From Candidatus Nomurabacteria bacterium (GTDB lineage Bacteria; Patescibacteriota; Minisyncoccia; Phycocordibacterales; CAIZLB01): a DNA stretch of 64,000 nt. The notes below the pieces were generated by a model. The model was given only the letters and a program-made list of their open reading frames with translations, searched no databases and was not told the origin of the DNA. The position numbers and the translations under genes are program-made. Positions 3,501 to 50,708 of the stretch are shown here, one piece after another. Each line of letters begins with the position of its first letter. The stretch's first letter is position 1. The stretch is from the NCBI GenBank assembly GCA_943356525.1, contig CALRFG010000005.1, forward strand, positions 2,921-66,920, written 5' to 3'.

Positions 3501-3823
3501 AAGATAATACAAAAGCATCTGTTGATGGAGGTAGAAAGCAAGATTCTCTGAATAGAATTAAATTATTAAGTGAATTGTATCCACAAGCAAAAGATTTGTG
3601 TTTAGATATTATAAGATCAATCAAAGATCTGGATGCGTTACCAAATGGTGTTCTTAAGGAAATTGTTGAACTTCGTATTGATAAAACTAATCCAGAAAAA
3701 GCGTATCTTGAACTAAAAGAACTTATCCCAAGTAAATATCTAGAAAGTATATTTGAAACTGCTGATAGAGCAAATGATGATAGTCAACTAATTGTTCTTT
3801 CTGAAGAATTAATTAAAATATGA
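521..3823 (+). CDS. Fusion of an HKD (phospholipase-D family) nuclease domain and an SNF2-family helicase. Likely the restriction/translocase subunit of an RM-like defence module.
   Basis: The N-terminus carries HSKFYILHNK...GSSNLT (HxK(x)4D...GSxN PLD motif). Helicase motif I is ADVVGLGKSIIA, motif II is ILDEAHKHRN (DEAH), and motif III is SNF2-type LSATPFNNDPKDIYALIKLF. The C-lobe reads IIIATDAISEGFNLH...QRVGRINR. The gene overlaps the next gene by ATGA. Confidence 0.8.
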   Translation: MDNMSTSINNIGDNTLSSNLKSILPNCDKIDALVGYFYFSGFKDLHNELADKQIRILVGMDIDKKIIDKVSTLKDLNLDSHTTDTKISSRSGSKDDYIENFSRIFNDTDFFDNDESQKSFEVFLDKIKDGSLQIKKTPQANHSKFYILHNKPEFSTNGITPGIVIEGSSNLTFSGLKGQGEHNRILTEKHYYEEDVKRFNETWADPNNIIITDLDSAESFIKEIKDKIWLYALPDPMLMYYKVLSEYFAVSEIEDMKTPKHITGGKFSDLKYQKDAINLGIDRIKKFGGVIIADVVGLGKSIIASAIAHNLGYKTIIIAPPHLESQWKDYASEFDFKGHIYSTGKIEDALQRHEDDKGKLLIILDEAHKHRNEDTGNYKSLHRLCAGNYVMALSATPFNNDPKDIYALIKLFSTPGQSTIRTVENLSMSFHMLFKRYKAVRRDLRKNSKDESDGSEIKIELHSIADELRKMIEPLIIRRSRLDLEEIDEYREDLKAQGVAFAKVKDPQLLEYDLGEMFDLYVETLEKIAPEDKSTSFIGARYKPASYINEGSKFLEKLIEQDDEDGMSAEEKLQRITQAQSNLARFMRRLLVRRFESSIGAFKLSLKNMIDSSEIMLDWYVNRREVPIFKKGMLPDTEYLDELPDNELDALILNLEEKGLIRIPINELKSDFINDLQHDISILRDIDNAWSNKTTDPKYNFFKQKIIQSLEENSNRKIVVFTEFSDTANYVFEKLKKDGLNRAFKYSSEDASDDNKKIIKQNFDAGLDESKQVNDFDIIIATDAISEGFNLHRAGAIINYDIPYNPTRVIQRVGRINRINRKVFEELYIYNFFPTLTGEKETRTKAISTLKMDLIHTLLGEDTKTLTSEEDLHNYFAKQYNEENNKNESLSWDAPYRNMWLKIKDDKNIMDQISRIPHRSRIARKNKDVDGVVAFAKKGSSYVFAFGKTPETVEIVSPRIALPLFNQVLDSETSSQTTVNFDPIYKMAKDHIFKDNTKASVDGGRKQDSLNRIKLLSELYPQAKDLCLDIIRSIKDLDALPNGVLKEIVELRIDKTNPEKAYLELKELIPSKYLESIFETADRANDDSQLIVLSEELIKI

Positions 3824-6800
3824 AATTAAACGAAAAATACAATCAAACTTATTTTACTGAATTTGTGGCAAATCTTTTACCAGAAGATTTTGTTTTACGT
3901 GAGGAAGATATAATAATTAAAAAAGATAGGTATAAGGAAATAACCAAGGCAAAAGAACTTGGTTTTTGTAAGTCTTTAGATTTACATGTTTTAGAAATGG
4001 ATCATAATCACAACAAAGACCCTAGGGTTATTATTGCTACTGATGCGTTTAAGATATTGGCAGATCATTGGATTAATAAGGCACTAGTTATATTTAAAAA
4101 TAACGATTCAGAAAATTATCGTCTCTCGTACCTAACCATAAATCTTGATTTAAATGATAAAAACAAAATAATTAAAAATTACTCTAATGCCAGAAGATAT
4201 TCATTTTATCTAGGTGTTGGTGCTAAAACAAAAACACCTGAACAACAACTTTTGGGGAAGGGTAAGATAAAAGACCTAGAGGATTTACTTAACAGGTTTT
4301 CTGTTGAGGTAGTTAATAAACAGTTCTATTTAGAAGTTGCTAAGTTTTTCGACGAACTTGTTTCTGTTGATAAAGAAAATTTGGTTACACTTAATCCATT
4401 AAATGTTGGTTTAAACGCTCGAAAAAGTTTTGCTGTAAGACTTATTGGACGTATTATGTTTTGTTGGTTTCTTAAGCAAAAAAAATCTGACAGAGGTCAA
4501 TTAATTCCAGATGAAATACTGTCCTCTAAGGCTGTGTCTGGTAATTATTATCACAACATTTTAGAGCCTTTATTTTTTGGTATTTTAAACACAAGTATTG
4601 ACGCACGTGACATAAGAAGTGAATTATTTGATAATGTTCCTTATTTAAACGGTGGATTATTTAATCCTCAGGCTGATGATTATTATGAGTTAAATCGTGA
4701 TACTTTTGTTTCTAAATATGTAGATATTTTTACTATAAAAGATGATTGGTTTATAAAATTCTTTGAGCTTCTAGAGTTGTATAATTTCACCATTGATGAG
4801 AATACTGTTTTTGATCAAGAATTGTCTGTTGATCCTGAAATGTTGGGTCGTATTTTTGAAAATTTACTTGCTGAAATTAATCCAGAGACAGGTAGTAGTG
4901 AGCGTAAAAGAACAGGTAGTTTTTATACACCAAGGCAGATTGTAGAGTACATGGTTGATCAATCGTTGATTGAATATTTAGAAATAAATACTGGTATAGA
5001 AAATGGGAAAATAGCCGCCCTCGTTAGTTATGATTTAAATGATGATACAGAAAACCCTATTAATGATGAAGAAAAAAAGAAAATTATATATGCTCTTGAA
5101 TCTTTAAAGATATTAGATCCTGCCTGTGGATCTGGTGCTTATCCAATAGGTGTATTACAAAAAATTGTATATATACTTCAACAAATTGATCCAGATTGTA
5201 CCATGTGGTTAGATGAAAAACTTGTGGGTGTGTCGGATTTATATAAACAAAAAATAATCAACGAGGTAAAACAAAATCCTTTTGACTACACTAGAAAATT
5301 AGATGTAATTAAGAATTCTATTTTTGGTGTTGATATTCAACCCATTGCTGTAGATGTGGCTCGTTTAAGATGTTTCCTGACTTTGATTGTAGAATCTGAA
5401 ATTAATGATACAAAACCAAATAGGGGTATAGAACCATTACCAAACTTAGATTTTAAATTTGTGTGTGCTAACACTCTTATATCAGCACCTGAGCAAAGTA
5501 TTGAAGATGAAAACACTCTCTTCGGTGATTTTTTTCAAGAAAAAATGACTTCTGCCATAGATAGATATTTTTCATCATCTGGAGAAAATAAAAGAAGTGC
5601 TAATAATGAAATACATAAATTAATTGATGGAAAAATAGAAGAAAAAATAGGTCATATTGCAAATTTCACTTCACTTGGAGGTATTAAAGAGATTGAAGAG
5701 ATGCTTATAAAGGCTAATAAAAAAGATATAGACAAACATTCAAATATACTTAAATTATGGGCTAGTTATAAAAATATTTTTGAAAATAAACCTGTAGATT
5801 TTTTTGATACTAAATATTTTTTCCCGGGAATTAAAGATGGTTTTGATATAGTTATAGGTAATCCTCCTTATGTTCAAATTCAGAAGTTTTCAGGTACTGA
5901 GGTACAAAAAAATCTCCAAGATCAAAATTATAAAACTTTTGAAAAAACAGGTGACTTGTATGCTTTATTTTATGAGAGGGGTTTAATGTTAACAAAAAAG
6001 GATTATGGATTGCTTTGTTATATTACTTCAAATAAGTGGATGAGATCTGAATACGGAAGATCTCTTCGTCAATATTTTGTTGAACATGATCCTAAGATTC
6101 TTATTGATCTTGGGGGAAATGTTTTTGAATCTGCTACTGTTGATACGAATATTTTATTAATACAAAATAGAAAAAACAGAAAAGAAACAAGCGTGGTTTC
6201 TGTTAAAAGCGATAAGGGTGAATTTGGTACTCAAATAAAAAAAGATTCTATAAATATGTCTTTTTCAAACAACGACGGTTGGTTCATTGGATCTTTGTCA
6301 GAAATAGGTTTGAAAAATAAGATAGAAAAAATAGGAAAAAGACTTAAAGATTGGGATATTAAAATAAATTATGGAATAAAAACAGGTTACAATGAAGCTT
6401 TTGTTATCACAAAAGAAAAAAGAGATGAATTAATAAGTAAAGATTTTAAATCAGCTGAAATTATAAAGCCGATATTAAGAGGTAGAGATATAAAAAGATA
6501 TGCTTATGATTTTAAAGATTTGTATATTATAGCAACTGGTTATGATTTAGATGTGCCAAATATGTACCCAGCTATTTTTAATCATTTAAAACAATTTGAA
6601 CAAAAAGCAAAAAAGAGATGTGATAAGGGTAAGAATTGGTGGAATCTTCGGGCCTGTGTTTACTACGATGATTTTGCAAAAGATAAGGTTGTATGGGCAG
6701 AGACAGATCAAAACCTGAATAGTGTTTTAATTTCTGACGAATTTTATTTACAGAAAACTTGCTTTATGATTACTGGATCCAACTTGAAGTACATAAATGC

Positions 6801-7086
6801 TTTATTAAATTCAAAAATTTCTCAATATAATATTAGATCAATATGCTCTGGTTTAGGAGAAAAGGGTATGAGTTTAACCAAAGAATCAGTATCTAAGTTA
6901 CAAATTCCACCTATCACTAAAGAAAATCAAGATATTATTTCTAATATAGAAGCACTTGCTGGTCAAATCATTGAAGCAAAAAAATCAAATCTAGATTTAA
7001 CCACAAAGCATTTAGAAGCAAAAATTGATGATCTTGTATATAAACTATATGAATTGACTGAAAATGAAATAAAAATTATAGATTAA
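3820..7086 (+). CDS. Eco57I/MmeI/PglX-family (gamma-class) N6-adenine DNA methyltransferase with a C-terminal target-recognition domain. DrmMI/Type IIG-like.
   Basis: SFYTPRQIVEYMVDQ (FYTP motif X) is followed by ILDPACGSGAYP (motif I, FxGxG) and IVIGNPPYVQIQ (motif IV, NPPY). About 330 aa precede the MTase core and a ~380-aa C-terminal region is typical of a TRD. The 4-bp overlap with the upstream helicase implies translational coupling. Confidence 0.8.
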   Translation: MKLNEKYNQTYFTEFVANLLPEDFVLREEDIIIKKDRYKEITKAKELGFCKSLDLHVLEMDHNHNKDPRVIIATDAFKILADHWINKALVIFKNNDSENYRLSYLTINLDLNDKNKIIKNYSNARRYSFYLGVGAKTKTPEQQLLGKGKIKDLEDLLNRFSVEVVNKQFYLEVAKFFDELVSVDKENLVTLNPLNVGLNARKSFAVRLIGRIMFCWFLKQKKSDRGQLIPDEILSSKAVSGNYYHNILEPLFFGILNTSIDARDIRSELFDNVPYLNGGLFNPQADDYYELNRDTFVSKYVDIFTIKDDWFIKFFELLELYNFTIDENTVFDQELSVDPEMLGRIFENLLAEINPETGSSERKRTGSFYTPRQIVEYMVDQSLIEYLEINTGIENGKIAALVSYDLNDDTENPINDEEKKKIIYALESLKILDPACGSGAYPIGVLQKIVYILQQIDPDCTMWLDEKLVGVSDLYKQKIINEVKQNPFDYTRKLDVIKNSIFGVDIQPIAVDVARLRCFLTLIVESEINDTKPNRGIEPLPNLDFKFVCANTLISAPEQSIEDENTLFGDFFQEKMTSAIDRYFSSSGENKRSANNEIHKLIDGKIEEKIGHIANFTSLGGIKEIEEMLIKANKKDIDKHSNILKLWASYKNIFENKPVDFFDTKYFFPGIKDGFDIVIGNPPYVQIQKFSGTEVQKNLQDQNYKTFEKTGDLYALFYERGLMLTKKDYGLLCYITSNKWMRSEYGRSLRQYFVEHDPKILIDLGGNVFESATVDTNILLIQNRKNRKETSVVSVKSDKGEFGTQIKKDSINMSFSNNDGWFIGSLSEIGLKNKIEKIGKRLKDWDIKINYGIKTGYNEAFVITKEKRDELISKDFKSAEIIKPILRGRDIKRYAYDFKDLYIIATGYDLDVPNMYPAIFNHLKQFEQKAKKRCDKGKNWWNLRACVYYDDFAKDKVVWAETDQNLNSVLISDEFYLQKTCFMITGSNLKYINALLNSKISQYNIRSICSGLGEKGMSLTKESVSKLQIPPITKENQDIISNIEALAGQIIEAKKSNLDLTTKHLEAKIDDLVYKLYELTENEIKIID

Positions 7087-7394
7087 CTTTGTTAATAGTG
7101 TGGTGTTGGTAACTTAACTACACAAATCCTTTTTATTAAGCTAAGCTTTAAAAGTACCTAAAAAATTGGTATAATCAAATCACAATTTAACAGTCGACCT
7201 AACCCCTAAAAGCCTTGTGTTTCTAGGATATGGTTGCAAATCCGTCCAAAGTAAAGAACTCCTAGTCAGGGTTCACTTTGGACGGTCATATCTGGAAACA
7301 GGTATGGACACTCCCTACGGGGTTTGTCGACCTGGCTAGGAGCTTTTTACTACCTAGTCAGATCACAATTAATCATAAAAAACCGTCCAAATTT

Positions 7395-18530: not shown

Positions 18531-19304
18531 ATGTTTTTATCAAATCACCATTCATTTACAATAGTAAGTAAAAAATCTTTAAAGAGAAAAGATGATTTAA
18601 TATTATCTCAGAATTTTGAAGAGGATGTTAAAGTAAACGTTAATGATGATGACAGACGCAATTTTCTAAAAATCTTAGGCGGGGCTTCGGTCGGTGCTGC
18701 TGTTTTATCTATGATTCCCTCTAAAGCCCAAGCTTATATAATTGGTAGTTCACCAACTGCTGGTATAGTAGGTGTTAAAAATAGTTTAAATGTCGGGGTT
18801 AACCCAGCAACAGAAGATGGAAACCTTGCAACATTGACTGCTAAAGATTTTGCAACAGAGACAACATTAAACACCTTAAACAGTAAGGATTTTGCAACAG
18901 AGACAACACTTGCAACCCGTGCTTCTGAAACTACATTATCTGCCATAAAAACTAATTCTGATAAGTTTTTATTTGATGTAGGTGGAAACCTTCTTACTGC
19001 GTCAACAGGAGGTGCTGCTGGAGCTGTAACAGTAAAAGACACAACAAATACTCAGATAAACCCAGCTACTGACGAGAGTATTTTATATCTTAGACGTATG
19101 GTTAAGTTGATGGAATCTCAAGCGGTTGTTGATAGTCAGATGAGACAGAGAATCGTAGTTGATATTATGCCCTCAGTTACTATTACTTCAGGTACTGTTA
19201 CAACATTAAACCAGATAGCTGGTGTTGATTCACGTTGGCAAATACTAGACTGGTCAAGACAAGCGTACAACAGTGGTATTAGAGGTAATCTTTTAAACTC
19301 TTAA
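18531..19304 (+). CDS. Tat-signal-peptide repeat protein.
   Basis: DRRNFLKILGGASVGAAVLSMIPSKAQA is a consensus twin-arginine signal. Tandem KDFATETTL(N/A)T repeats. Confidence 0.6.
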   Translation: MFLSNHHSFTIVSKKSLKRKDDLILSQNFEEDVKVNVNDDDRRNFLKILGGASVGAAVLSMIPSKAQAYIIGSSPTAGIVGVKNSLNVGVNPATEDGNLATLTAKDFATETTLNTLNSKDFATETTLATRASETTLSAIKTNSDKFLFDVGGNLLTASTGGAAGAVTVKDTTNTQINPATDESILYLRRMVKLMESQAVVDSQMRQRIVVDIMPSVTITSGTVTTLNQIAGVDSRWQILDWSRQAYNSGIRGNLLNS

Positions 19305-19307
19305 CTT

Positions 19308-22184
19308 ATGGCAATAACAAACAATTTAAAAAAACAAATAGATCTGCCGGTATGGGAATGGTGTCGTTTTGCACCTTCAGTAACTACAGCTGTTTCATCC
19401 TTGACGACTGGAAACAACTTGCTAAACCGCTTCTTGTACTATCAGGTATCAAACCTTCTCTATAGATATGATACTCACACTGATACATGGCATCAGCTGT
19501 CATCAACTCCAGCCAACACGCCAACTATCATGAACTCAAATGTTTTAAGCAACTCGGTAGGACATTATGGACAAGCTATATCAGGAGGGGTCAATACTAT
19601 ACAGCTTGCAGGACTTTCTGGACAAGTTTTGGTCGGATACAAAATACGTATATTATCAGGTACAGGTGTAGGACAGGAAAGAACAATAACCCAAGTATCT
19701 CTGCCAACTTATCATGAAAGAGGTGTTGTAACTACAACGAGTAGTACGCAGATAATCGATGCTTCAACAGGTATAGGTTTAAAACAATGGAAAACAAATC
19801 AGTGGAAAAATTATCAAGTTCGTATAGACTTTGGAACAGGTAGAACACAACTTAGGCCTATACTATACAATACACAAAACACTCTTACGTTTAGTGATCC
19901 AAACTATTTAACGGTAAACCCTTGGGCAAACACCCCCTTGATGGTTGGCGCGACTGCATCCTCATCTTTATTTGTTATAGAAAGTCATCAAGTTACTGTA
20001 AATACAAACTGGACAGTTCAACCCGACTCAACCTCAAATTTTGTTATTTTATCAGGTGGTATTTGGAATGTGTCACAAGGTACAGCATCGTCACCGTTCT
20101 TTTCCTTTATGTATTACGACATACTCTCTGATGTGTGGTATCAAAAATCAACTCAATCTGGTTTAAAAGCTGCAGTTTTTGGTGCCACTTCAGATCTTTC
20201 TCTTGAACGATTTACTGAGTTTGGGGGTGCTTTGTTTACAGAAACTGCTGCTGGAGGGGGTGCAAGATTTATTACTGCTTCGACCCCACTTATACCTATG
20301 AGTTACGCTAACTTAGAAATACGTATAGTTAACGGTACAGGTAAAGGTCAATCATTGTCTATTATTAGTAATACTGCCACACGAATAAATACTACCACCA
20401 ATTGGGATGTAATCCCTGATAATACTTCTGTTTATGAAATATGGAGAGATGTTAGTAAGATATTTCTTATAGGTGGAGGTGACTCATCAATGTTTCAGTA
20501 TTCGCAGACTAGTGACCAGTGGACAACAGGAAAACAACTTGATTACGGTCAATGTAATCAGTTAGCTGCTACAAAAATAGGTCAAAGTCCATTTGCCTTA
20601 ACGTCTATAACGAGAACAGCGACCGGTATTACTGGTTTGAACGCGACACCGACGGCCGGGGGTACTGGATATAATATAAATGATTTGCTTACACTTGCTA
20701 TTGGATCAGGTGGTATTGCTCGTGTTACTGCTATATCAAGTACCGGTGCTGTAACTGCGGTCACAATCGAATCAGTTGGAACAGGTTACTCTGTGACATC
20801 AGGTATTGCAACCACTGTTGTACCAGCCGGAGGTACGGGGTGTACACTACAGGTGACTGCTGTTGATTTTACAGAACTAGCTTTAACTCCCATACCTCAT
20901 AACTTTAAGGTTGGTGATACTGTTACTATGTCCGGAGCAAGTGGTACAGGTGCTGCAAAATTTAATGGAACCTACACAATCATCGGTATACCTGCTTTAA
21001 CAACAAATCTTTCTTTCAGTTATTGTTCTGTTGGTGATCCGGGTGCGGCAAGTGCAACTATAGCAAATTCACCATCTACGACTCAGCTTGTAGATTGTAC
21101 TAAAAACTGGACCGTAAACGAGCATGTTGGTAAACTTATCCAGATTTCAAATAATGCTGTTTTAGCAACCGGTCAAGTTAGACGTATTGTTTCAAATACT
21201 GCCACAACTTTAGTTTGGACATTGGCAGCAACCGCACCTGTAAACGGTTTAAATAGATATGTTATAGAAGATATAAAACCTTTTGGAACGGAGCGTATGT
21301 CTAAAGGTGAGATAACTGGAACAGAAGGTTTTGCAACTGGTGGATCGACAACAACTATCATTGATACTACAAAAGCTTGGGAGACAAACTATTGGTCTAG
21401 AACTGTGAACCGTAAGGTTCGTATAGTTGAAGGAACAGGTGTTGGTGCTGAACTTCCTATCACTTCAAACACTGCTACAACACTTACTTTTGCAGCACAA
21501 TCATTCACAGTTGATACGACAACTCGATATGTCATCATGGATACATTTGGAACTGCTACTGCTGGCTCTACTGGTGCACTTACTGATACTGCACAAAACT
21601 GGGAAACAAACTACTGGGTAGGGCGTAGAGTAAAATTTTTGTCAGGGACAGGACAGGGAAATGAGTATTCTATTACATCAAACACTTCAAACACACTCAA
21701 TTTTGCCGTTGCGACTGCACCAGATACATCAACTGCATATGCTATACTTGAGGCAACTCCAAAAACAAGTGGTTTACATCTTGATTGTATAGTAGGATCT
21801 TCCGATACGACCCTAAATAGCAAGTATGTGTATGCATGGACTGGATCAGGTACATCGGAAATTTCTAGATACAATATAAATACAGAGCATTGGGAATATT
21901 TGGCATATTTTCCACAATCGGAAACTCTGTCAACTGGTGCTATGTATTGTTATGATGGTGAAGATAGGATTTATTATTTACAAGGTTTCACAACTACGGC
22001 CAAGTTGATGTACTATGACTTGGTAAAAAACATAGTTGTACCAGCCTCTCAACCTCCATACGGTATGGGAATTTCAGTATCAGGTAACCGTATGGAGATA
22101 ATAGAAACAGAGGATGGTTTGAAATATTTATACCTGATGAGACAATCAGGTAACGAGATGTGGAGAATATTATTATACTTTTAA
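19308..22184 (+). CDS. Large (958 aa) beta-rich repeat protein with no signal peptide.
   Basis: At least six ~40-aa modules of the form W.TN.W....V.I..GTG.G....I.SNT.TTL.F. Separated from the upstream gene by 4 bp. Confidence 0.6.
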   Translation: MAITNNLKKQIDLPVWEWCRFAPSVTTAVSSLTTGNNLLNRFLYYQVSNLLYRYDTHTDTWHQLSSTPANTPTIMNSNVLSNSVGHYGQAISGGVNTIQLAGLSGQVLVGYKIRILSGTGVGQERTITQVSLPTYHERGVVTTTSSTQIIDASTGIGLKQWKTNQWKNYQVRIDFGTGRTQLRPILYNTQNTLTFSDPNYLTVNPWANTPLMVGATASSSLFVIESHQVTVNTNWTVQPDSTSNFVILSGGIWNVSQGTASSPFFSFMYYDILSDVWYQKSTQSGLKAAVFGATSDLSLERFTEFGGALFTETAAGGGARFITASTPLIPMSYANLEIRIVNGTGKGQSLSIISNTATRINTTTNWDVIPDNTSVYEIWRDVSKIFLIGGGDSSMFQYSQTSDQWTTGKQLDYGQCNQLAATKIGQSPFALTSITRTATGITGLNATPTAGGTGYNINDLLTLAIGSGGIARVTAISSTGAVTAVTIESVGTGYSVTSGIATTVVPAGGTGCTLQVTAVDFTELALTPIPHNFKVGDTVTMSGASGTGAAKFNGTYTIIGIPALTTNLSFSYCSVGDPGAASATIANSPSTTQLVDCTKNWTVNEHVGKLIQISNNAVLATGQVRRIVSNTATTLVWTLAATAPVNGLNRYVIEDIKPFGTERMSKGEITGTEGFATGGSTTTIIDTTKAWETNYWSRTVNRKVRIVEGTGVGAELPITSNTATTLTFAAQSFTVDTTTRYVIMDTFGTATAGSTGALTDTAQNWETNYWVGRRVKFLSGTGQGNEYSITSNTSNTLNFAVATAPDTSTAYAILEATPKTSGLHLDCIVGSSDTTLNSKYVYAWTGSGTSEISRYNINTEHWEYLAYFPQSETLSTGAMYCYDGEDRIYYLQGFTTTAKLMYYDLVKNIVVPASQPPYGMGISVSGNRMEIIETEDGLKYLYLMRQSGNEMWRILLYF

Positions 22185-22193
22185 TACAATATC

Positions 22194-23132
22194 ATGAATA
22201 TAGATTATCTTATACAATTATTAACAAATAGACTCTCAAAACTTGTTCTTACAAAAGATCAAGCTTTTTCCTCTGGAGATCTTGAGAGAATAAATACTGT
22301 TGATGGTGAGATACTAGATGTGCACAATACACTTTCAAAACTTAGGCTTGTATTAAACGTAGACGAGGCTGCAGCTGTATCATCTTTGTCTGCTTCACAA
22401 ATAGTGCAAAGGGGAATAGAGTCTATTTTTACACCAAGTATTATAAACGGTTCTACTGAAGTAATGTTAAAATATAATATAGTTCCATATGCTACAGATC
22501 CGTATCACGAGACTAAGATTCAAACAATATTAGAAAATATGGGAAGTATGGATCGTTATGATCAAATAGATACTTACTTGAGGAGAAGTACACCAGACAC
22601 CCCACTTACAGGTTTGATGATTTACAATTCTGCTATGAAATATAACGTAGACATCCGTTTGATGATGGCTATTATGGAACTTGATTCTAGATATGGAACA
22701 CAAGGTTTAGGTGCTAGAACTTTTAACCCTGGCAATGTTGGTAATAATGGTTTTGAGGAAAGAAGCTATGGTTCATGGGAGGCCGGGGTTGATGCAGTAG
22801 CAAACTGGTTAAATAATCATAGAATCGCACAAGATAATACAATTACAATTAGTCCTACTATTGAACCACAACCGTCGATTTCTTTCATAACGATTCCATC
22901 TATCGTTCCAGCTGTTTCCAGTATAGTCATAACACCTGATACCGCTAGTGGTTTGACATCGGCGGCCACCTCAACAGTTTCTTTTGACATAGCTAGTTCT
23001 ACAGAGCCTGTTGCTGTAACTTCTACGACAACAGAAACTTTGGCCATAAGTACAGATTCCATTGTCGATACAGTTACTATCGATATAGCAACAACAACTG
23101 ACGCTACTGCAAGTTTTACAGAATCAAATTAG
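22194..23132 (+). CDS. Putative peptidoglycan hydrolase-like domain protein (glucosaminidase/GH73-like) with a Ser/Thr-rich C-terminal tail.
   Basis: MAIMELDSRYGTQGLGARTFNPGNVGNNGFEERSYGSWEAGVDAVANWL weakly resembles the FlgJ/GH73 core. The C-terminal ~100 aa are T/S/I-rich. Low-confidence function. Confidence 0.35.
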   Translation: MNIDYLIQLLTNRLSKLVLTKDQAFSSGDLERINTVDGEILDVHNTLSKLRLVLNVDEAAAVSSLSASQIVQRGIESIFTPSIINGSTEVMLKYNIVPYATDPYHETKIQTILENMGSMDRYDQIDTYLRRSTPDTPLTGLMIYNSAMKYNVDIRLMMAIMELDSRYGTQGLGARTFNPGNVGNNGFEERSYGSWEAGVDAVANWLNNHRIAQDNTITISPTIEPQPSISFITIPSIVPAVSSIVITPDTASGLTSAATSTVSFDIASSTEPVAVTSTTTETLAISTDSIVDTVTIDIATTTDATASFTESN

Positions 23133-23169
23133 TATAGAGCTGTAGAATCGTGCTAATCTTACTTCATAT

Positions 23170-23901
23170 ATGGAAAAGGTACACGGAAAATACGAAAAAT
23201 TTTATCCATATTTGGAAGACTTAAAACAACGTTTATATAAAGGGGTTGTTCTTTTTTCTATTATGTTTTTTGTAGGTTTTTTTCAAACATCTATAATACT
23301 TAGATATATTATTTCAAATTTAAATATAAAAGATGTAGTAATAGCAGCAACCTCACCTTTTCAATTTACAAGTCTTGCAACGGATGTTGGTTTCTTTTTA
23401 GCTATTATTGTTTCTATTCCTTATTTTATGTATAACGTATATGCATTTATAGCACCAGCTATAACAAAAAAAGAAAGAAATTTTATATATCTATCAATAC
23501 CTGTTTGTTTGTTATTATTTACCTTTGGATTTTTGTACGGTTTTTTTATACTTTACTATACACTTCAGTTATTGGCCAACATAAATACAGGAATAGGAAT
23601 TCAAAATATTTGGGATGTTAGTAATTTTATAATGCAGATATTTATGACAGCAAGTTTTTTGGGCTTATTTTTTGAGTTTCCAATTATCATGACTCTTATG
23701 ATAAAAACTAATATGTTAAATGTAAAAACACTTAAAAATAAAAGAAGAATAGCCTATTTTCTAATATTTGCATTGACAGCTTTACTTCCACCAACTGATG
23801 GTATATCATTAATAGCAATATCTTTGCCACTTATACTTTTATATGAAGTGACAATTTTATTTAATAATAATAATAAAAATAATAAAATAAAAATATGTTA
23901 G
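23170..23901 (+). CDS. tatC: Sec-independent protein translocase TatC.
   Basis: Six-TM protein. It carries ATSPFQFTSLA, FIAPAITKKERNF (TatC F-x-x-P-x-L-x-x-E-R) and ALLPPTDGIS (TatC LTPPD motif). Confidence 0.8.
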   Translation: MEKVHGKYEKFYPYLEDLKQRLYKGVVLFSIMFFVGFFQTSIILRYIISNLNIKDVVIAATSPFQFTSLATDVGFFLAIIVSIPYFMYNVYAFIAPAITKKERNFIYLSIPVCLLLFTFGFLYGFFILYYTLQLLANINTGIGIQNIWDVSNFIMQIFMTASFLGLFFEFPIIMTLMIKTNMLNVKTLKNKRRIAYFLIFALTALLPPTDGISLIAISLPLILLYEVTILFNNNNKNNKIKIC

Positions 23902-24059
23902 GATTAGGAAACAGAGAAATAATAATATTAGCAATTATTTTAGTTTTACTATTTGGAGCAAAGAAAATTCCAGAACTTGCAAGAGGTGTGGGTGATGCAG
24001 TACGTCATATAAGAAATGGTTTTACAGACGAAGTCGATAAGGATGGAAAAAAGAAATAA
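23895..24059 (+). CDS. tatA: Tat translocase TatA/E family protein. 54 aa, below the ORF-track size cutoff.
   Basis: MLGLGNREIIILAIILVLLFGAKKIPELARGVGDAVRHIRNGF is the TatA TM-hinge-amphipathic helix signature (LLFGxKK(I/L)PEL). It overlaps the tatC stop. Confidence 0.75.
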   Translation: MLGLGNREIIILAIILVLLFGAKKIPELARGVGDAVRHIRNGFTDEVDKDGKKK

Positions 24060-24075
24060 TTCATTTGAATAAAAA

Positions 24076-24690
24076 ATGTCACACGTAAAGAGGATAGTTT
24101 TTTGGACAATATTGCTGATTGGGTCAGCGGTATTGTTTTATTTTTGGTCAACAAATCAAATGCTTATGATAAAGGCAGAAGAATCGGTTTACTCTGAACC
24201 TCAGACAGCTTTATCTGTGCAAAAAGAAGTTATAATCACTCCTAAATTTTACACCGTATCAACTTCAAGTTTTATGAAAATATTAACAATGAAAGATCTT
24301 GATTTAAATGAGTGGTCAAGTTCAACTCTCAAAATCAGTTCAACTACCATAGATTCTACAGATTTTGCTTTCAATTTCCCTAATGAAAAAAGTCTATTAT
24401 ATCAAAACTGTACTTACAGGGTAGAACTTGATTTTGGTGATAGCTTAAAACCTAACTATATGGGAGTTTTACTTGTAGATGCCGGTACACAAAAAGAGGT
24501 TAAATCAAAAGATAGTGGACTTATTTATTCATCAACATTCAAAGAAAATATTTTCTTGTGGAGTGTTGGAAATATATGGCCTGGAGAATATTATTTATCC
24601 ATACCGATGATCGAAGGTAAGGAGGTTGTAGTAAAAAGTAAAAAATTTATTATTGAAGAAAAACCTGAAGGCTATGTATGTAAAAAATAG
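24076..24690 (+). CDS. N-terminally membrane-anchored hypothetical protein.
   Basis: N-terminal TM segment, then a soluble domain with no recognisable motif. Confidence 0.4.
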   Translation: MSHVKRIVFWTILLIGSAVLFYFWSTNQMLMIKAEESVYSEPQTALSVQKEVIITPKFYTVSTSSFMKILTMKDLDLNEWSSSTLKISSTTIDSTDFAFNFPNEKSLLYQNCTYRVELDFGDSLKPNYMGVLLVDAGTQKEVKSKDSGLIYSSTFKENIFLWSVGNIWPGEYYLSIPMIEGKEVVVKSKKFIIEEKPEGYVCKK

Positions 24691-24728
24691 TTTTATATTT
24701 TATTTTTTTATCGTATAATTACTTCAAC

Positions 24729-26636
24729 ATGAAGACAAAAATATTATTTTCTATAATTATAGTTTTTGTTTTTACGTCTCTAAATGTTTACGCTGGAACC
24801 GAAAGGGTTTACTTGGGACAAACGATAAGAATAGGAGATTTTGTTTTTGAAGATGACTACACTCCAAGTACTGATGATTGTACTATTTCCATATATGACC
24901 CGAGTGGTGTACAGAAGGTAACTGAGCAAATAATGTTAGATAATGTTAGCGGTTGGCATTATTATGATTATACTGTTGGCATAAATGAAGTGACTGGAAA
25001 ATGGCCTGTTATTATGTCTTGCGGAAGTAATTTAACTCTTGATTTGGTTAAAGTTAATAAAGATTTTATCGTTGAGGTTGATACAACACTCTCAACTTCT
25101 ACCATAGCAGCTTCTGTTTCTACTTCGGTTTGGTCAAATCCATTACGAACTTTGACCGACTATGCAACATCATCCATAGCTGCTGCTATTTGGGGTTCAG
25201 CAAATAGAAGTCTTACCACTTTTGGAAGTTTAGTTTCTGATATATGGGCAAGCCCGACACGTGACCTTACAAGTTATGGAAATAACATAACCGCTGTAGA
25301 TGTATGGAATGCTGCAAACAGGTCTTTAACTGATTATTCAACTTCAAGTATAGCCAATGCTTCAGCTGATCTGGTTTGGAACAAGGCTTCTTCACAGCTT
25401 AACAGTATTGGTTCTATTGGTAAATTATTAACAGATAATATCGATGCGCAGATATCAAGTAGGGGAACAAGTTCTCTAACAGCTCTTGATGTTTGGAATG
25501 CTGGAACAAGATCTCTTACAAATTATTCTGAATCATCTATTGCTTCAGCTGCAGCGACAGCAGTGTGGGCAAATGGATCAAAAGAGCTTACAAATTACGG
25601 TAATGATATAACCGCAGCTGATGTATGGAGTGTTTTAACATCAAACCTAACAACAATAAATTCTATTGGAAAATTACTGGCTGACAATGTTGACTCACAA
25701 GTCTCAACTCGAGCAAATTTAACAAATCAAGAAGCTGGCTGGACAGTAAACATGTCTGATTTCACAACGGTTCAGACAGGTAAAACCTATAGAGCAAAAG
25801 TTTCTATTTTGAATTACCAATCTATACAAACAAATCCTTTTTCAACCCCAACGATAACCCTATTTGATCCAAGTAGGAATGTTGTTGTTTCAAACATTGC
25901 AATGACAAACATATCACCAGGTATATATGAATACACATATACTGTTGCAGGTACTGCAGAGCAAGGTGTATGGGAAGGTGTTGTAAATACTCAAGTTGAA
26001 TCCGGAAAAACTATAAATACAAATGATTATTGGCTAGTGGCAGGTTCACCGGCACAGGTTATTATTAACGGAGTTACGACATCAGGGCCTACTGTAACTG
26101 CAAACTTGACTGTAACAAACGAAGGTCTTGCTGGTTATGAATATCAATATGAATGGTGTGTTGTTTCAGATATAAACAATCCATGTGGTGGAGGTGATGA
26201 TGTATATAGAGGAACAGGGGCTAAGTACATAAATCCAGGTGAAGATTGGAATACTAACCTAACAGCTACTGTTACAACTGATGGGAATTATTATTTTAAA
26301 GTTATAGTTTATTTTGGGACTGAAAAATCTGGATCATCAAGAACATTTACTATGACAGGGGCAAATGTTATTACACCTCCTGCAGGTGGCGGTGGTGGAG
26401 GAGGTGGCGGTGGTGGAGGAGCTTATTCTTCCAGTGTGGCTGTATGTATGGGTGGGGACCTCAATGGAGATAAAAAAGTAAATACAGTAGATTTCTCTAT
26501 ATTACTTTCATTTTGGAAAACAAAACCACCGTTTAAAAATTCTTGTGTTGATATAAATAAAGATGGAAATATAAACACTTCTGACTTCTCTATACTATTA
26601 TCTCAATGGGGAACTAAAGGTAAAAATATAAAATAA
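24729..26636 (+). CDS. Secreted repeat protein with a C-terminal type-I-like dockerin domain.
   Basis: Signal peptide. SLT(D/N)Y..SSIA repeats. A Gly12 linker. Two Ca-binding dockerin repeats, DLNGDKKVNTVDFSILL and DINKDGNINTSDFSILL. Confidence 0.6.
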   Translation: MKTKILFSIIIVFVFTSLNVYAGTERVYLGQTIRIGDFVFEDDYTPSTDDCTISIYDPSGVQKVTEQIMLDNVSGWHYYDYTVGINEVTGKWPVIMSCGSNLTLDLVKVNKDFIVEVDTTLSTSTIAASVSTSVWSNPLRTLTDYATSSIAAAIWGSANRSLTTFGSLVSDIWASPTRDLTSYGNNITAVDVWNAANRSLTDYSTSSIANASADLVWNKASSQLNSIGSIGKLLTDNIDAQISSRGTSSLTALDVWNAGTRSLTNYSESSIASAAATAVWANGSKELTNYGNDITAADVWSVLTSNLTTINSIGKLLADNVDSQVSTRANLTNQEAGWTVNMSDFTTVQTGKTYRAKVSILNYQSIQTNPFSTPTITLFDPSRNVVVSNIAMTNISPGIYEYTYTVAGTAEQGVWEGVVNTQVESGKTINTNDYWLVAGSPAQVIINGVTTSGPTVTANLTVTNEGLAGYEYQYEWCVVSDINNPCGGGDDVYRGTGAKYINPGEDWNTNLTATVTTDGNYYFKVIVYFGTEKSGSSRTFTMTGANVITPPAGGGGGGGGGGGGAYSSSVAVCMGGDLNGDKKVNTVDFSILLSFWKTKPPFKNSCVDINKDGNINTSDFSILLSQWGTKGKNIK

Positions 26637-26647
26637 TATAAATAAAT

Positions 26648-27544
26648 ATGTTAATTCATCATAATTTTAAAAAAATAGTAAAATCAACACTCATTTTATG
26701 TGTTATTTTAATTTCTATTAAAAGTGAGGCTATGTCTCTGTATTTTGAAAAACCTGAGTCAGAAATACGTGTTGGCGATACTGTCATGTTAAATATCTTT
26801 CTAGATACTGAAAATATTGAAGTTAATGGGATAGAAGGTGTTGCAAAAATATCAGGTGCCGGAGTGGTTAGTAATTTAAATGTAGCAGGTTCTGTTTTTA
26901 GTCTGTGGCCAAATAAACCATCACTCTTAGGTGAAGAAGTTAGTTTTGTTGGCGGAACACCTTCAGGTGTGTTCGGTAAGAAGAATAAAGTATTTAGTAT
27001 TTTTTTTAAAGCAACAGAGGTAGGTAAGGTTAATCTTTCTATAAAGCAGGCCGACGTTTTTTTAAATGATGGTAAAGGTACAAAATTAGCCTTACTTGGT
27101 ATAAATGAAGTTTTAGATATTTCTAAATCAATCAATGAATCCAAGAATGAATTGAGTAATTTAATTATAAACGATAAGGTTTTACCAAATCCATTTAAAA
27201 TAGAATTGGGAAAAGACCCAAACATGTTTGATGGAAAATATTTTATAAGCTTTTACTCTACTGATGATATGTCCGGTATAAATAGATATGAAGTTAGAGA
27301 GAATAATTTACCAGCTGTAAGATCTGGTAATACTTATGTTTTGGAAGACCAATCTTTAAGTGGGAAAGTCGAAGTTAAAGTGATAGATAATGCTGGTAAT
27401 TTTACTATCAAAACAATAGACCTTAAAGAAAAAGATAATAAATATAATTCATATATATTATTACTAATTATTATTATTATTTGTATATTATTATATTTTA
27501 AGATTAAAAAAATAAGAAAAAGTAAGAAAAAAAATAAAAAATAA
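26648..27544 (+). CDS. Cohesin-like domain protein with a C-terminal TM anchor.
   Basis: Signal peptide and a cohesin-like beta-sandwich block (VGDTVMLNIFLDTENIEVNGIEGVAKISG...VSFVGGTPSGVFGKKNKVFSIFFKATEVGKVNLSI). C-terminal hydrophobic anchor plus a KKxRK tail. Confidence 0.45.
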   Translation: MLIHHNFKKIVKSTLILCVILISIKSEAMSLYFEKPESEIRVGDTVMLNIFLDTENIEVNGIEGVAKISGAGVVSNLNVAGSVFSLWPNKPSLLGEEVSFVGGTPSGVFGKKNKVFSIFFKATEVGKVNLSIKQADVFLNDGKGTKLALLGINEVLDISKSINESKNELSNLIINDKVLPNPFKIELGKDPNMFDGKYFISFYSTDDMSGINRYEVRENNLPAVRSGNTYVLEDQSLSGKVEVKVIDNAGNFTIKTIDLKEKDNKYNSYILLLIIIIICILLYFKIKKIRKSKKKNKK

Positions 27545-27551
27545 TATTGTC

Positions 27552-29348
27552 ATGAAAAAAATACTAATTATTATATTTTCCACAGCAGCTTTTTTAAGTA
27601 TATCAAATGCTTCAGCAGCTGACTTTCTTACAGGCTCGAATAAGGCAGAGGTAAGTGAAGGTGAAACTTTTGATATAAGTGTATATGTAAACAGCCAGGG
27701 GGTTGCTATAAATAGTGCTGAAGGTTCACTGTCATTTCCAAGTGATTTGGTCAGTGTTGTTTCAGTAAATAATGCCGGGTCTATATTTCCAATATGGGTT
27801 GAACAACCATCTTATTCAAACACCTCCGGCTCAGTTAGTTTTAACGGAGGAGTACCAAACCCTGGATATGCAGGTTCAAGGGGTTATGTTGCTAAAGTAA
27901 CATTCAAGGCAAAAAAAGCAGGTAAAGCTTCTATCGCGTTTGGAGCTTCAAGTATTTATTCTAACGATGGTTCAGGTACAGATGTTTTAAACAAAAAAAG
28001 TGGTGTATCGGTTTTGATAAAAGCTGCAGAAGCTACTCCTGTTGTCAAAGAAGAACCTCTAAAAGATGGGGTAATAGATGTAGATAGAAAACCAATAATA
28101 GAAAAACCTATCCCTATTAAAAGTGATGAAATTGTTGAAAATATAAATAATAGAGATACAGTATTGCCACCAATGCCTGTTATTTCATCTAAGGATTTGA
28201 CTGACGGAAAAGAATGGTTCACTACAAAAAAAATAATGCTGGACTGGGATGTTCCTGGGGGAGTGACAGCTGTTCAGTTTTCTTTCGGTGGTAAAGAAGA
28301 CGCGATACCAACATCAATATATTCACCGGCTATTAATTTTGCAAAAATATTAAATATTGCTAACGGCGTATCCTACTTCCATATCAGGTTTAAAAATAGT
28401 GCAGGTTGGGGGGGGATATTACATAAAAAAATAATGGTAGACTCCTTTTCGCCAGGAGATATTACGGGCACCTCAGTCTTAAATGATAAAAAACTTATAT
28501 CTCTTTCTGTTTACTCTGAAGATTTGCACTCAGGGATAGATAGATATGAGGCATATGTTGATGGAAAAAAGGTTGCAGAAATAAAAGGTGGTTTTGATAA
28601 AAATACTACTATAGATTTACCGTTACTTAAAACAGGTCAGAATAAAGTAACTATTATCGCCTACGATGTCGCAGGAAATAAAAATACAAAAATAATTGAC
28701 ATTAATTCTCCTGAAGCTGAATCTCCTCAAATAAAAATTTCAAAAATAGAAACGAAAATAGATGAAGGTAACAATCTTTCCGTTTATACATATCCAAATA
28801 TAGAAATAGTACTTTATATAAAAGATGAAACCGGAAAAGTAACGAGTTCTTCTACAGTTAGTGGTTTAGACGGTTCTATAAGTATTCCTATAGAAGCTTT
28901 TAAATCAGTAGGTTTGAAAACTTTATGGGTATCATTGAATAATGATTGTGAAGATATGTGTGTACTTTCTGAAAAGCTGACAGTACAAGTTGTTGAAGGT
29001 GATTTAACTCGAGTACCTAAAGAATTTTTAAGCATGATACGTAAAAACTATTCAGGGACAATACCTTGGCTTATAGCAATTATATTCATGTTACTATACC
29101 TATCTACATTTAAAAGAAATAAAAATAAAGATATTATCCAAGAATTAAATAAGGCCGAGATAGATGTATATAAAATATTTAAAGTATTAAAAAATGATGC
29201 TAAGAGATATAAAGCAATGCTTAAGAGAAATAAAATTGATATAGTTGAAAAAGATCAGGTTATTATTGAAAATCTGGAAAAAGATTTGGAAGAAGCAGAG
29301 ACTTGTTTTGCAAAAAGAATAGAGAAAATAGAAAAAGAATTGGAATAG
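27552..29348 (+). CDS. Cohesin-like domain protein with a C-terminal TM anchor and a coiled-coil tail.
   Basis: Signal peptide. Cohesin-like block paralogous to the previous ORF (GETFDISVYVNSQGVAINSAEGSLSF...YVAKVTFKAKKAGKASIAF). TM segment near the C-terminus. Confidence 0.45.
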   Translation: MKKILIIIFSTAAFLSISNASAADFLTGSNKAEVSEGETFDISVYVNSQGVAINSAEGSLSFPSDLVSVVSVNNAGSIFPIWVEQPSYSNTSGSVSFNGGVPNPGYAGSRGYVAKVTFKAKKAGKASIAFGASSIYSNDGSGTDVLNKKSGVSVLIKAAEATPVVKEEPLKDGVIDVDRKPIIEKPIPIKSDEIVENINNRDTVLPPMPVISSKDLTDGKEWFTTKKIMLDWDVPGGVTAVQFSFGGKEDAIPTSIYSPAINFAKILNIANGVSYFHIRFKNSAGWGGILHKKIMVDSFSPGDITGTSVLNDKKLISLSVYSEDLHSGIDRYEAYVDGKKVAEIKGGFDKNTTIDLPLLKTGQNKVTIIAYDVAGNKNTKIIDINSPEAESPQIKISKIETKIDEGNNLSVYTYPNIEIVLYIKDETGKVTSSSTVSGLDGSISIPIEAFKSVGLKTLWVSLNNDCEDMCVLSEKLTVQVVEGDLTRVPKEFLSMIRKNYSGTIPWLIAIIFMLLYLSTFKRNKNKDIIQELNKAEIDVYKIFKVLKNDAKRYKAMLKRNKIDIVEKDQVIIENLEKDLEEAETCFAKRIEKIEKELE

Positions 29349-33043: not shown

Positions 33044-36000
33044 ATGTCTGAAAATAGTGAAAAAAAATATATAAAGGTTGAGGATTTTGTCGGAGCTACA
33101 AAACACGAGGTTGGTGATTCTGTAGAACATGCAATTGAAGAGTTGGATACCATACAAGCAAGAAATGAAGAAATTGCATTATTAATAGAAAGTGCCGATA
33201 TTCCCCTTGCTGATAAAGAGGCTTTTAGATCAGAACTTGCAAGTGTAGAAAATAAAACGTTATCCTTTAAAGAGAAATTTTTAATAAGATTAGAAAAAGT
33301 AGCCGAGACTGTGCTTACTCCTATTGCAAAAGGTATTGAAGCATACGGTAGAAATTTTGGAGAAAGTAAAAAAAAGATAGATGGGGTAAATTTTATACTT
33401 GAAAATTTAGTATGTGAAAATAAGGAAGAGTTGTTAGAAGATTTAAGGCAAAAGGTTGAAAAAAATTATTTGTATTCAATTCCGGTTCCAGAATTTCCAC
33501 TTGATAAAAATGGTTTAGAAATAATATCTTATATTAAAAAGAAAGATATCGGGTCTATGTACGATGTAGAGAGTATAATTAAGAAGGTAAATTTTATGCA
33601 CAAGCTGCATAAAAAAAGTGTTTCTTTACAAATGATAGGGTGTTTTGATCTGGATCATGATTTTTACAATAGCGATTCTGTATTAGAAAATAAAGATTTA
33701 ATAGCTAAGCTAATCTTATTGGACAAAACTGATTTCAAGCTTTATCTAAAAGATATTCCAATGTATAAGATAGAGAAATTAGAGCTTGAAAAAATAAATC
33801 TAATTATTCAAAATCCGTTTCTACGTATTTCATTTCACGAATCTTATTATCTAAATGTAGATAAAATAAATAACTATATTACCGAGGAAAATCTTAAAAA
33901 AATCAAGGATTTTATTAGTGGTCCGATGTATCCGAGTAAAAACATTAGTGAAATTTTTACTTTCGTAGAAAAAGTTTTTAATTTACCTAAAGGTGTTCAG
34001 GGTATTTGTGATTTCTTATATCACCGTAATGGTGGACAAATAAATCAGATATTGACTAACTATGAAATTGATATGCGCTACAATATGCTTAAAAACCTAA
34101 AAGAGCAAGAAATAATAATTTTAAACAGGTTGGTCAAAGAGGTTGACGTCTCAATGTGGAAAAAAGACGATATTAAAGAATATTTACAACTTAATGAAAA
34201 TATTTTTGATAGGTGTAAAGAGTTGGATATATATATAGGCAGTTCCTATCGACCTGTCAGTTTGTTTTTGGAAATAAGTAGTATGTCTGATGACGAATTT
34301 GATCTATTTAAGCAAATATACAATAAAACACCAGCAAAAAGAGTAGATCTTGCTTTAAAAACTTTTACTTCAATAAATGAATCGCTAACCTCTGAACGCT
34401 TTAAGGAAGTTATTTCGTTTATTGATAGGATTGGTGAAACACATAACTTAAGATTTTATATAGAAGATAATCGTTCATTAGCAGATCTGGTTTATTTTAT
34501 GGGAGTTGTGGAAGAAGAAAAAGATATTGATCTTCTAGACTTAATAGAAAGCGCCTTCGGAAAGTATACACTGCATAAATGTGCAAGAGATAAGTTTTTA
34601 CTTGATGAGATTTTGGCTGGATTCGTGTATGAAAGGTCGTTTGCTGTTCCGCGAATTATAAATGATCAGAATATGTGTTTACATACATTTCAAAATTTTG
34701 AAAAGGTAAACGGTTATCTAAAACTTAAAAATAGCAAATTTTCAGAACAAGATATTGAGACAATATATTATAATATTTTAAACTCGAATCCTAACATTTT
34801 TTTAACAGAAAATACTTTTCCGTTGACAGTTGAAATGAGAGCTGAAATAACAAGAAGTATTACCGGGATATCATCACCTGAAATTTTGAATAGATTTTAT
34901 TTCTTTAAAAAAGAATATCTTGACCATACTAATAATCAACAAGAATTACTAAACCGTTTATTTGATACGCTTATTGTAACCCAACCAAAAGAACTCTTAG
35001 AATCTAAAGATTTTCCTTTTACCGAGGAACAAATGCGATATGTAGAGATCTTTAAAAGAATTAACGATTCACCATCAAGGGAATTAAAAAATCTTTCTAC
35101 AGAAATAATTCCACTCTTGTTAAAAAACAATACAATAGAATTAATGCATGAGTATGTTTCAAGGATCGAGCATATATTTTTAACTAATAATATACCGATG
35201 GTAGGAAAGCAATATAAGGTTTTTGAAATATTATATGGAGATACACAATTAAAAAATGGGGTATCAAGAAGTAAAGTCGAGTCTTTGAAAAAAATGAATA
35301 ACCCTATTAAGCAACGATTAACAATCTTTAAGGATTTGATGAGGGCTCATATTGCATCAGCCGATAGTAATCTAATGCAATACTTAACTGCACTTAAGGA
35401 AGGTAGAAATGCTTTAGAAAAATTTGAAAGTGACACACCTCTTGAGGAAAATGAAAAGAAAAGTCTGAAGGCATTTATAAAAAAAATAAATATCTTAACA
35501 GGTCATATAGGAAAAGAATCTATTGTAATGGGAGATGATATATCTGATGAAGAAATGGCTCAGGAAATACGAGAACTGAGTACGTCATTGGGGGTTGAGG
35601 AAGGAGGAAGTATAATCCATAAATTTGAGAAATTTTTTCTAAAAGGAATAGGGATAGAAACAATAAATGAAGCAATTGAAATAATGAAGCAACGTAAGAT
35701 TGGGGCACATAATCGAAATGTTGAGTTGTCCATATCAGGAAAAATATCACTACAAAATGGTGATTTAGTAAAAGGTGTATCAAGTAATTATTTTGATACC
35801 TATCTTGATAAAGGTGTCTACGCGCCTGAATTTGTTGGTGCGCAAAGTGTCGGTGCAAAATCTGTAAGTAGATCAAGTGATGGTACACCGTTTGATACTG
35901 ATTTAATAATAATAGAAGATGATAAAACGGATCTAGAAGACAATCTCACTGGGTACGGTGATATAAACCTGATATTAAAAAATAAATCCCAATTTGAACA

Positions 36001-46808: not shown

Positions 46809-47071
46809 AGACGACCATACAGTATGATAATAAACCAACGAAAAAAACGGATATAAAGACCAAAGCAATAGCTTAAAGTTTTCATATCCGCTTTTCGTTG
46901 AAAGCGGATTTTCCTTCGCAAATTGACAATTACAAACCTTCGCGTAAACAAATTGTTGAGTAAACAGTTTGGCAATCGGGATTTCTCAGGAAAGCCCCCG
47001 GTTGAAAAATTAGGTAAACGCAGAAGGATAATTAACATACATTTTCACGATTGTGGTATATGTATTTCCTA

Positions 47072-50465
<3,394 letters not shown>

Positions 50466-50591
50466 ATATGTATATCCAATCGTGAAAGTGTATGTTAATT
50501 AAATTGTAATTGAAAATCAAAAGTACGTGAGCTAAGCGAAAGATTTCTTTCTTGAAATCTGAAAGCTTAGCGAGCGTCATCGAATCTTTTG

Positions 50592-50708
50592 TTCTGGTGA
50601 CTCGTTGGAGGGGCCACACCTGATCTCATTCCGAACTCAGAAGTTAAGCCCTCTTAAGGCGATGGTACAAGCTTTACGCAAGGAGAGTAGCTTGTCGCCG
50701 GAACAAAG
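50592..50708 (+). rRNA. rrf: 5S ribosomal RNA.
   Basis: CCACACCTGATCTCATTCCGAACTCAGAAGTTAAGCCC...GCGATGGTAC...GAGAGTAGCTTGTCGCCGGAA. The terminal helix pairs with the 5' end ttctggtgac. Confidence 0.85.

Follow-up and report, generated by a model that had tools for sequence, protein, structure and literature searches.

We analysed a 64,000-nucleotide (nt) stretch of a Candidatus Nomurabacteria contig (CALRFG010000005.1, positions 2,921 to 66,920; hereafter the window), which carries the twin-arginine translocation (Tat) genes tatC and tatA within a nine-gene cassette that is conserved across lineages of the candidate phyla radiation (CPR). Upstream of the tat pair, the cassette encodes a small adaptor with a Tat-type signal (A) followed by large cargo proteins that start without a signal, and homology indicates that the cargo derives from, or has been exchanged with, structural modules of phage virions. 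From sequence we infer a complex of these proteins and their joint export, and on balance it seems probable that the adaptor carries prefolded, phage-derived cargo through the Tat pathway by hitchhiking. The cassette spans 18531-29348, and its last four genes encode Sec-type signals or membrane anchors:

18531-19304, + strand: A (p257), the signal-bearing adaptor, 257 amino acids (aa), with a Tat-type signal and conserved modules
18636-18836, + strand: core of the A N-module (signal plus ~30 conserved mature residues), common to adaptors of all cargo types
19308-22184, + strand: B (p958), type I cargo, 958 aa, predicted all-beta, signal-less, with Kelch-like blades at both ends and repeated inserted domains of ~80 aa
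22194-23132, + strand: hyd312, 312 aa, signal-less, with an N-terminal helical hairpin of ~55 aa, a lysozyme-like (Glucosaminidase-like) domain at aa ~140-210 and a tail rich in serine, threonine and proline
23170-23901, + strand: tatC, 243 aa (PF00902, E=2.2e-38, 132.6 bits against a cutoff of 25.1)
23895-24059, + strand: tatA, 54 aa (PF02416, E=1.7e-12, 46.8 bits against a cutoff of 21)
24076-24690, + strand: p204, a chassis protein with an N-terminal membrane anchor, co-occurring with TatCA in several cargo types
24729-26636, + strand: chassis surface protein with a Sec-type signal, an MG2 domain (PF01835, 1.8e-9) and a C-terminal dockerin (PF00404, 4e-8; 33.7 bits against a Pfam cutoff of 22.9)
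26648-27544, + strand: p298, a chassis protein paralogous to p598, with a Sec-type signal and a membrane anchor at its C-terminus
27552-29348, + strand: p598, a chassis protein paralogous to p298, with a Sec-type signal and a membrane anchor at its C-terminus

A conserved cassette around TatC and TatA

An initial annotation of the window had read 18531-24059 as one unit, in which a signal protein, a signal-less 958-aa protein and a hydrolase-like protein with a serine/threonine-rich tail precede tatC and a 54-aa tatA overlapping its end. All five open reading frames (ORFs) were found where it had placed them, and both tat assignments were borne out by Pfam, the two genes sharing 7 nt (ATGTTAG). 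The genes are real, but the unit extends as far as 29348, with four chassis genes further downstream that had been missed. TatC reached 113.4 against the NCBIfam equivalog model, under its cutoff of 132.7, and is therefore divergent. Within the cassette we recognised no holin or lysis genes and found no cofactor domain. A reading of p298 and p598 as cohesin-like was dropped, as neither Pfam nor PDB sequences gave a cohesin match.

The same arrangement recurred in cellular loci with B-type (type I) cargo, of which we assembled 27 (23 from a scan with the B family, one genome per species, and 4 others). The recurrent order was A, B, hyd312, TatC and TatA (one or two copies), sometimes p204, and then the MG2/dockerin protein, p298 and p598. 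The tat genes lay within a few kb in 23 of the 27 loci, the contigs of the remaining 4 ending earlier, and the linkage was kept where tatCA was divergently oriented. TatC homologs were also sampled without reference to B, on long contigs (n=6) and in a metagenome scan by TatC alone. Chassis genes were present on all six of the long contigs. In the metagenome loci TatA adjoined TatC in 36 of 36 cases, and other cassette genes were found at 34 of the 37 TatC loci flanked by 3 kb or more of sequence, the three exceptions having less than 510 nt of sequence upstream. Chance co-location of tat genes and cargo was rejected on the 23/27 linkage and the TatC-first loci, and the earlier proposal of a dedicated TatC-TatA pair beside its substrate is strongly supported by a linkage conserved in several gene arrangements.

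The adaptor and its interchangeable cargo

In protein A, aa 1-38 are a cytoplasmic N-terminal extension and aa ~39-68 the Tat-type signal. A conserved mature segment (GSSPTAGIVGVKN..VNPATEDG) follows, and the chain ends in a type I C-module (aa ~165-257) with INPATDESILYLRRMVKLMESQAVVD...IRGNLLNS, whose homolog in phages is a protein without a signal. The twin arginines are residues 42-43, in DDDRRNFLKILGGASVGAAVLSMIPSKAQA, and the signal reads D-R-R-N-F-L-K, for a consensus of S/T-R-R-x-F-L-K, followed by an uncharged hydrophobic region and AQA at aa 66-68. The initial annotation had called this a textbook twin-arginine signal. That description holds for the window's own A in so far as it passes TIGR01409 TAT_signal_seq (19.7 bits, cutoff 16.7), but A stays under the gathering score of the Pfam TAT_signal family (15.5 against 22.7) and its family mostly carries KR. 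All 120 database homologs of A had a Tat-type motif with an uncharged hydrophobic stretch, with KR in 93 and RR in 27, and KR was also the form in 98 of 140 representatives. Conservation of both arginines, expected of a Tat signal, was therefore lacking, the second arginine alone being invariant; it and the residues around the putative cleavage site (the proline at -6, P63, and the AxA alanines A66 and A68) were invariant or nearly so. Neither was the N-terminal region short, as the motif starts at residue 42 in the window's A and at a median position of 45 (range 11-113) across the family, behind the conserved extension. Natural KR-type Tat signals are documented (Hinsley 2001, as cited in PMC6708511). 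A motif scan of all ORFs in the 64-kb window gave no other RR/KR-x-F-L-K signal, and among 505 genes of the cellular loci there were no Tat-type candidates other than A homologs.

The start of A at 18531 is supported by conservation of the 40-aa extension in homologs (MxLxNxxSFxxV). In most family members this extension (aa 1-40, window 18531-18650) takes the form MxLxNxxSFxxVxxK ahead of the Tat motif, and in one locus (L114) it is duplicated. Tat signals do not usually carry such an extension, which might act as a docking site in chaperone binding or proofreading. Alternatively, the RR/KR segment might be an uncleaved anchor, inserted by Tat (or by Sec/YidC), so that A tethers an extracellular structure and keeps its extension in the cytoplasm. 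This variant of the hitchhiking model, which differs in the fate of A, draws on the long conserved cytoplasmic extension before the motif and on a split form of the adaptor, described below, whose RR helix follows several transmembrane helices (L003, 13151-13951), like actinobacterial Rieske proteins. In these Rieske proteins the last helix is Tat-inserted. We nevertheless regard an uncleaved anchor as distinctly unlikely, given that P63, A66 and A68 are nearly invariant, as at signal-peptidase sites.

An exhaustive search with the N-module returned 141 representative clusters (98 KR, 31 RR), whose C-modules fell into three types and a few singletons. When adaptors of the three types were aligned, the N-module was constant, consisting of the extension, the [KR]RxFLK signal, AxA and GSxPTSxVVGVKNxxNxRINPATE, and the C-module downstream of it differed from one cargo type to the next. 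A split variant leaves the C-module, without a signal, beside B and encodes the RR-bearing N-module protein separately nearby. That protein has several extra transmembrane helices upstream of the RR helix (L003, 13151-13951, - strand; also L011, 13126-13992, - strand), resembling a dual Sec/Tat-inserted topology; in L011, two TatC/TatA pairs flank the cargo. Natural fusions of A and B were not found, and a profile search of the A family against PDB sequences returned nothing.

On the six long contigs chosen by TatC, the large proteins encoded between adaptor and tatC likewise had no signal but belonged to families other than B. Type II cargo combined a protein of 718-888 aa with one of 229-260 aa, type III cargo consisted of three proteins (3a, 3b and 3c), and the cargo proteins of types I, II and III all start without a signal. 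TatC loci with no adaptor mostly held tandem cargo paralogs or a cargo of ~2,800 aa running off the contig. Some cassettes (L150, L179, L182; L155, L156) had two or three tandem type II cargo paralogs, or a single ~2,800-aa cargo ORF, upstream of hyd/TatC. In L211, type IV pilin-like genes (GFTLIE-type N-terminal motifs) and a gene the size of a secretion ATPase stood between type II cargo and TatC (1370-6449, - strand).

In the window the cargo gene B follows A after a 3-nt spacer, and its product starts with a non-hydrophobic, signal-less N-terminus. AlphaFold2 modelled B confidently as all-beta (predicted local distance difference test score, pLDDT, 88.9; predicted template-modelling score, pTM, 0.88). 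About five ~80-aa units occur in B (motif GTG.GQ...I.SNT...L......PD.TS.Y.I.), and the internal duplications of longer homologs (1,040-1,250 aa) are extra copies of this unit. A fold search of the model against the PDB returned only generic beta-propellers (template-modelling (TM) score ~0.1), and a profile search of the B family against PDB sequences returned nothing. The gene is slightly richer in G+C than its neighbours (0.40 at window 20001-22000 against 0.32-0.34), which fits either its glycine-, threonine- and alanine-rich composition or a foreign origin.

As read earlier, hyd312 is a putative hydrolase-like protein: 13 of 14 homologs matched Glucosaminidase PF01832 (best E=1.5e-7), and hyd312 itself stayed below the Pfam cutoff (E=3.7e-6, 28.1 bits, cutoff 30.2). 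Its profile matched the active-site region of MltC weakly (E=0.07). Among the 14 homologs D164 and S165 were invariant, and E162 was replaced by Q or R in 4. The N-terminal hairpin of ~55 aa has its homolog in a phage protein of ~52 aa whose gene lies just after phage B. As hyd312 is wall-hydrolase-like yet signal-less, it would need some export route.

Phage relatives and the genomic setting

A full-length relative of B was found in a viral structure library (BFVD A0A6J7X8S1; TM-score 0.93, 42% identity), and a second in an isolated tailed phage, Pseudanabaena phage Pam2, whose protein Pam2_66 is 36.6% identical to B (E=4e-47) and is encoded among tail genes. Pam2_65 and Pam2_66 form an A C-module/B pair in the same order and adjacency. 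A 53-aa ORF occupies the hairpin position in Pam2, with a similarity to the hyd312 N-terminus that was seen by eye only. The annotation of Pam2_66 (L108, ON014754.1, 14986-17613) as 'flagellar hook-length control protein FliK' is a mis-annotation of a B homolog, and the labels of neighbouring Pam2 genes (botulinum neurotoxin, receptor tyrosine phosphatase) look like artefacts.

The viral database IMG/VR contained 182 relatives of B. A homolog of the A C-module was present in 75 of 81 viral loci (GC 0.28-0.63), almost always immediately upstream of B, and five of the six loci without a C-module ORF begin at a contig edge. These small phage proteins start directly at ...NPATDES..LLRRxVKLLES... 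and have no signal; apparent RR hits within them were rejected as Tat signals, since the RR belongs to an internal helix. A helical protein of ~52 aa followed B in 22 viral loci and clustered with the first ~55 residues of hyd312. The viral contigs also encoded tail sheath (2e-72), a virion structural protein (1e-98) and collagen-like tail fibres (down to 6e-121). Some of these fibres adjoin the A module and others are joined to it; one phage has the C-module as a fusion at the end of such a fibre. Homology and gene context thus point to the A C-module, B and the hairpin as a phage virion module, to which the CPR version appears to have added a signal-bearing N-module on the first protein and a lysozyme-like domain on the third. 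The type III trio likewise occurred as a phage module, in 27 IMG/VR loci near a major head protein (3e-75) and a head-tail adaptor (8e-33), with no detectable counterpart of the type III C-module in these loci. A pattern search of IMG/VR for type II cargo gave no match.

Two IMG/VR contigs with terminase, portal and major head genes (L029 and L030; GC 0.37-0.40) carry B homologs 58-60% identical to that of the window and may be phages that infect CPR bacteria or the hosts of such bacteria. The window's B is closer to these phage copies than to the B of many canonical CPR cassettes (41-43% identity). In a neighbour-joining tree of B, Tat-linked cellular copies fell in at least four places among viral copies; in the corresponding TatC tree the cargo types were not monophyletic, and the window's TatC stood beside the type III clade. 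Taken together, the two trees are suggestive of a chassis that persists while its cargo is replaced. The initial annotation had noted neither the phage origin of the trio nor the predominance of KR nor this swapping of cargo.

The close phage copies and the interleaving of cellular and viral B sequences, together with weak PHROG matches of TatC and TatA, would also suit a cassette that is itself a prophage or another mobile phage-derived element, with TatCA serving the phage in, for example, virion or lysis functions. We consider this very unlikely. TatC, TatA, the A N-module and the chassis proteins were absent from all 81 type I viral loci, as were tat, N-module and chassis genes from all 27 type III viral loci; no capsid, terminase, portal or sheath family was common to viral and cellular loci; and the chassis recurs across many CPR lineages. 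The PHROG matches in the window's cassette were weak and to families of unknown function. Prophage identity was rejected because no hallmark genes adjoin the cassette and its flanks are cellular (short-chain dehydrogenase, fasciclin, SOUL, class IV aminotransferase, PAP2, nitroreductase, thioredoxin and DsbD-like genes), with ribosomal RNA (rRNA) genes in the same window.

The window itself is a chromosomal piece of a CPR bacterium, given its low GC (about 0.30-0.40), its rRNA genes and the homologs of its proteins in Yonath-, Nomura- and Paceibacteria, Saccharibacteria and other CPR/Patescibacteria assemblies. A bacterial 23S rRNA gene split by a group I intron (49960-50163) and then a 5S rRNA gene lie at 47067-50703 (+ strand), with no 16S gene directly upstream of the 23S; no tRNA gene was found across the 64 kb. 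At 7196-7324 (+ strand) there is a match to the Rfam LOOT RNA (RF03000; 70.9 bits against a gathering score of 46.4), flanked by two ORFs of ~1,100 aa and a small ORF. Further very large ORFs (1,088-1,436 aa) lie within 521-7086, 33044-37126 and 54249-58559, and the 1,360-aa one among them had no Pfam match.

Proposed hitchhiker export and known systems

In the model that we favour, A, B and probably hyd312 would fold and assemble in the cytoplasm through the A C-module and the hyd312 hairpin. TatC would recognise the [K/R]R-x-F-L-K signal of A and the whole complex would be translocated, in the manner of hitchhiker export, with the signal presumably cleaved at P-x-x-A-x-A, a conserved site. 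Once across the membrane, hyd312 would deal with the cell wall through its lysozyme-like domain, and the complex would act at the cell surface together with the Sec-exported p204, MG2/dockerin protein, p298 and p598. Support for hitchhiking comes from the absence of signals on cargo of all three types, encoded beside a signal-bearing subunit; from an adaptor whose C-module co-varies with the cargo while its N-module is constant; from the split variant, which keeps a signal-less C-module beside B; and from the need of the wall-hydrolase-like hyd312 for a way out. The signal-less phage homologs of A directly upstream of B suggest in addition that the partnership of A and B existed beforehand.

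Several points weigh against this model. KR signals, the majority form in the A family, are generally less efficient than RR signals, and a signal behind an N-terminal extension of 10-110 aa is atypical for Tat. A complex of A, B and hyd312 would have a mass of ~160 kDa, close to the largest sizes known for Tat cargo, and an oligomeric fibre would be too large. The AlphaFold2 monomer of A was poor (pLDDT 59.6) and unusable. For hyd312, both the sub-cutoff Glucosaminidase match and the substitutions at E162 count against the assignment. One locus (L218) combines cargo and TatCA with no detectable adaptor, and the B and TatC trees are neighbour-joining trees without bootstrap.

It may also be that A alone is a Tat substrate, secreted or membrane-anchored, and that B and hyd312 stay in the cytoplasm or leave otherwise, for instance by lysis of some cells, the linkage reflecting co-regulation only. 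The signal is indeed on A alone, assembly in the cytoplasm and release by lysis are the norm for phage structural proteins, and the full complex is large for Tat. Such a division is nonetheless unlikely in our estimation: in three cargo types the genes flanked by the adaptor gene and tatC encode signal-less cargo, the adaptor C-module follows the cargo, a lysozyme-like protein has no obvious cytoplasmic role, and lysis genes were not recognised in the cassette.

Beyond the hitchhiking model, we tentatively raise the possibility, itself rather doubtful, that CPR bacteria repeatedly capture virion-surface or receptor-binding modules of phages and display them on their own surface via the Tat adaptor chassis, whose parts would be a constant signal and N-module, a C-module that binds cargo and can be exchanged, and a phage-like hairpin joined to a wall hydrolase. 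Phages infecting either the CPR cells themselves or their bacterial hosts may be the source, and such episymbionts would gain an exchangeable device for adhesion or host recognition, or else a means of masking receptors against their own phages. This would also explain why Tat is retained in organisms without redox enzymes.

Tat systems are usually explained by the export of cofactor-loaded enzymes, and the CPR system appears instead to be linked with a single modular adaptor and with prefolded structural proteins derived from phages. Should co-export be real, hitchhiking would extend to non-enzymatic, interchangeable cargo, episymbionts whose attachment and host-range determinants are largely unknown would possess a conserved, lineage-wide surface apparatus, and a continuing flow of genes between phages and a cellular secretion cassette would be documented. 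The adaptor, the cargo and tatC are testable targets in the few cultivable CPR-host systems. TatA and TatC have been reported in some CPR classes (PMC9166423). In the searchable literature on Tat in CPR bacteria and Saccharibacteria, on the cassette and on Pam2 structural proteins, we found no description of this cassette.

The closest known arrangement of genes is that of PhoD and TatAdCd in Bacillus subtilis, where a minimal TatA and TatC without TatB likewise stand beside an apparently sole and presumably co-expressed substrate (PMC6708511). PhoD, however, is a single enzyme with its own signal, whereas here a small modular adaptor precedes one to three large proteins that lack a signal, its own signal is mostly of the KR form, and four Sec-dependent surface proteins are added. 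In its division of labour the cassette resembles hitchhiker complexes such as Escherichia coli hydrogenase-2 HybOC, DmsAB and PaoABC, in which one subunit bears the signal and adjacent genes encode signal-less partners; co-translocation follows cytoplasmic assembly (Rodrigue 1999, as cited in PMC6708511), and PaoABC is a ternary example (PMC4273604). These known hitchhikers are cofactor-containing redox enzymes, in contrast to the virion-like, interchangeable cargo whose co-export we infer here. Phage appendage and tail-fibre modules (Pam2_65-66 and the IMG/VR relatives) share the homologous A C-module and B in the same order, but the phage versions lack a signal peptide, tat genes and the hydrolase fusion, and the window has no other phage genes. 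Tailocins, type VI secretion systems and extracellular contractile injection systems are likewise cases in which cells reuse phage structural proteins with swappable specificity modules. Unlike these, the cellular loci described here have no sheath, tube or baseplate genes, and export would use Tat rather than lysis or a contractile machine.

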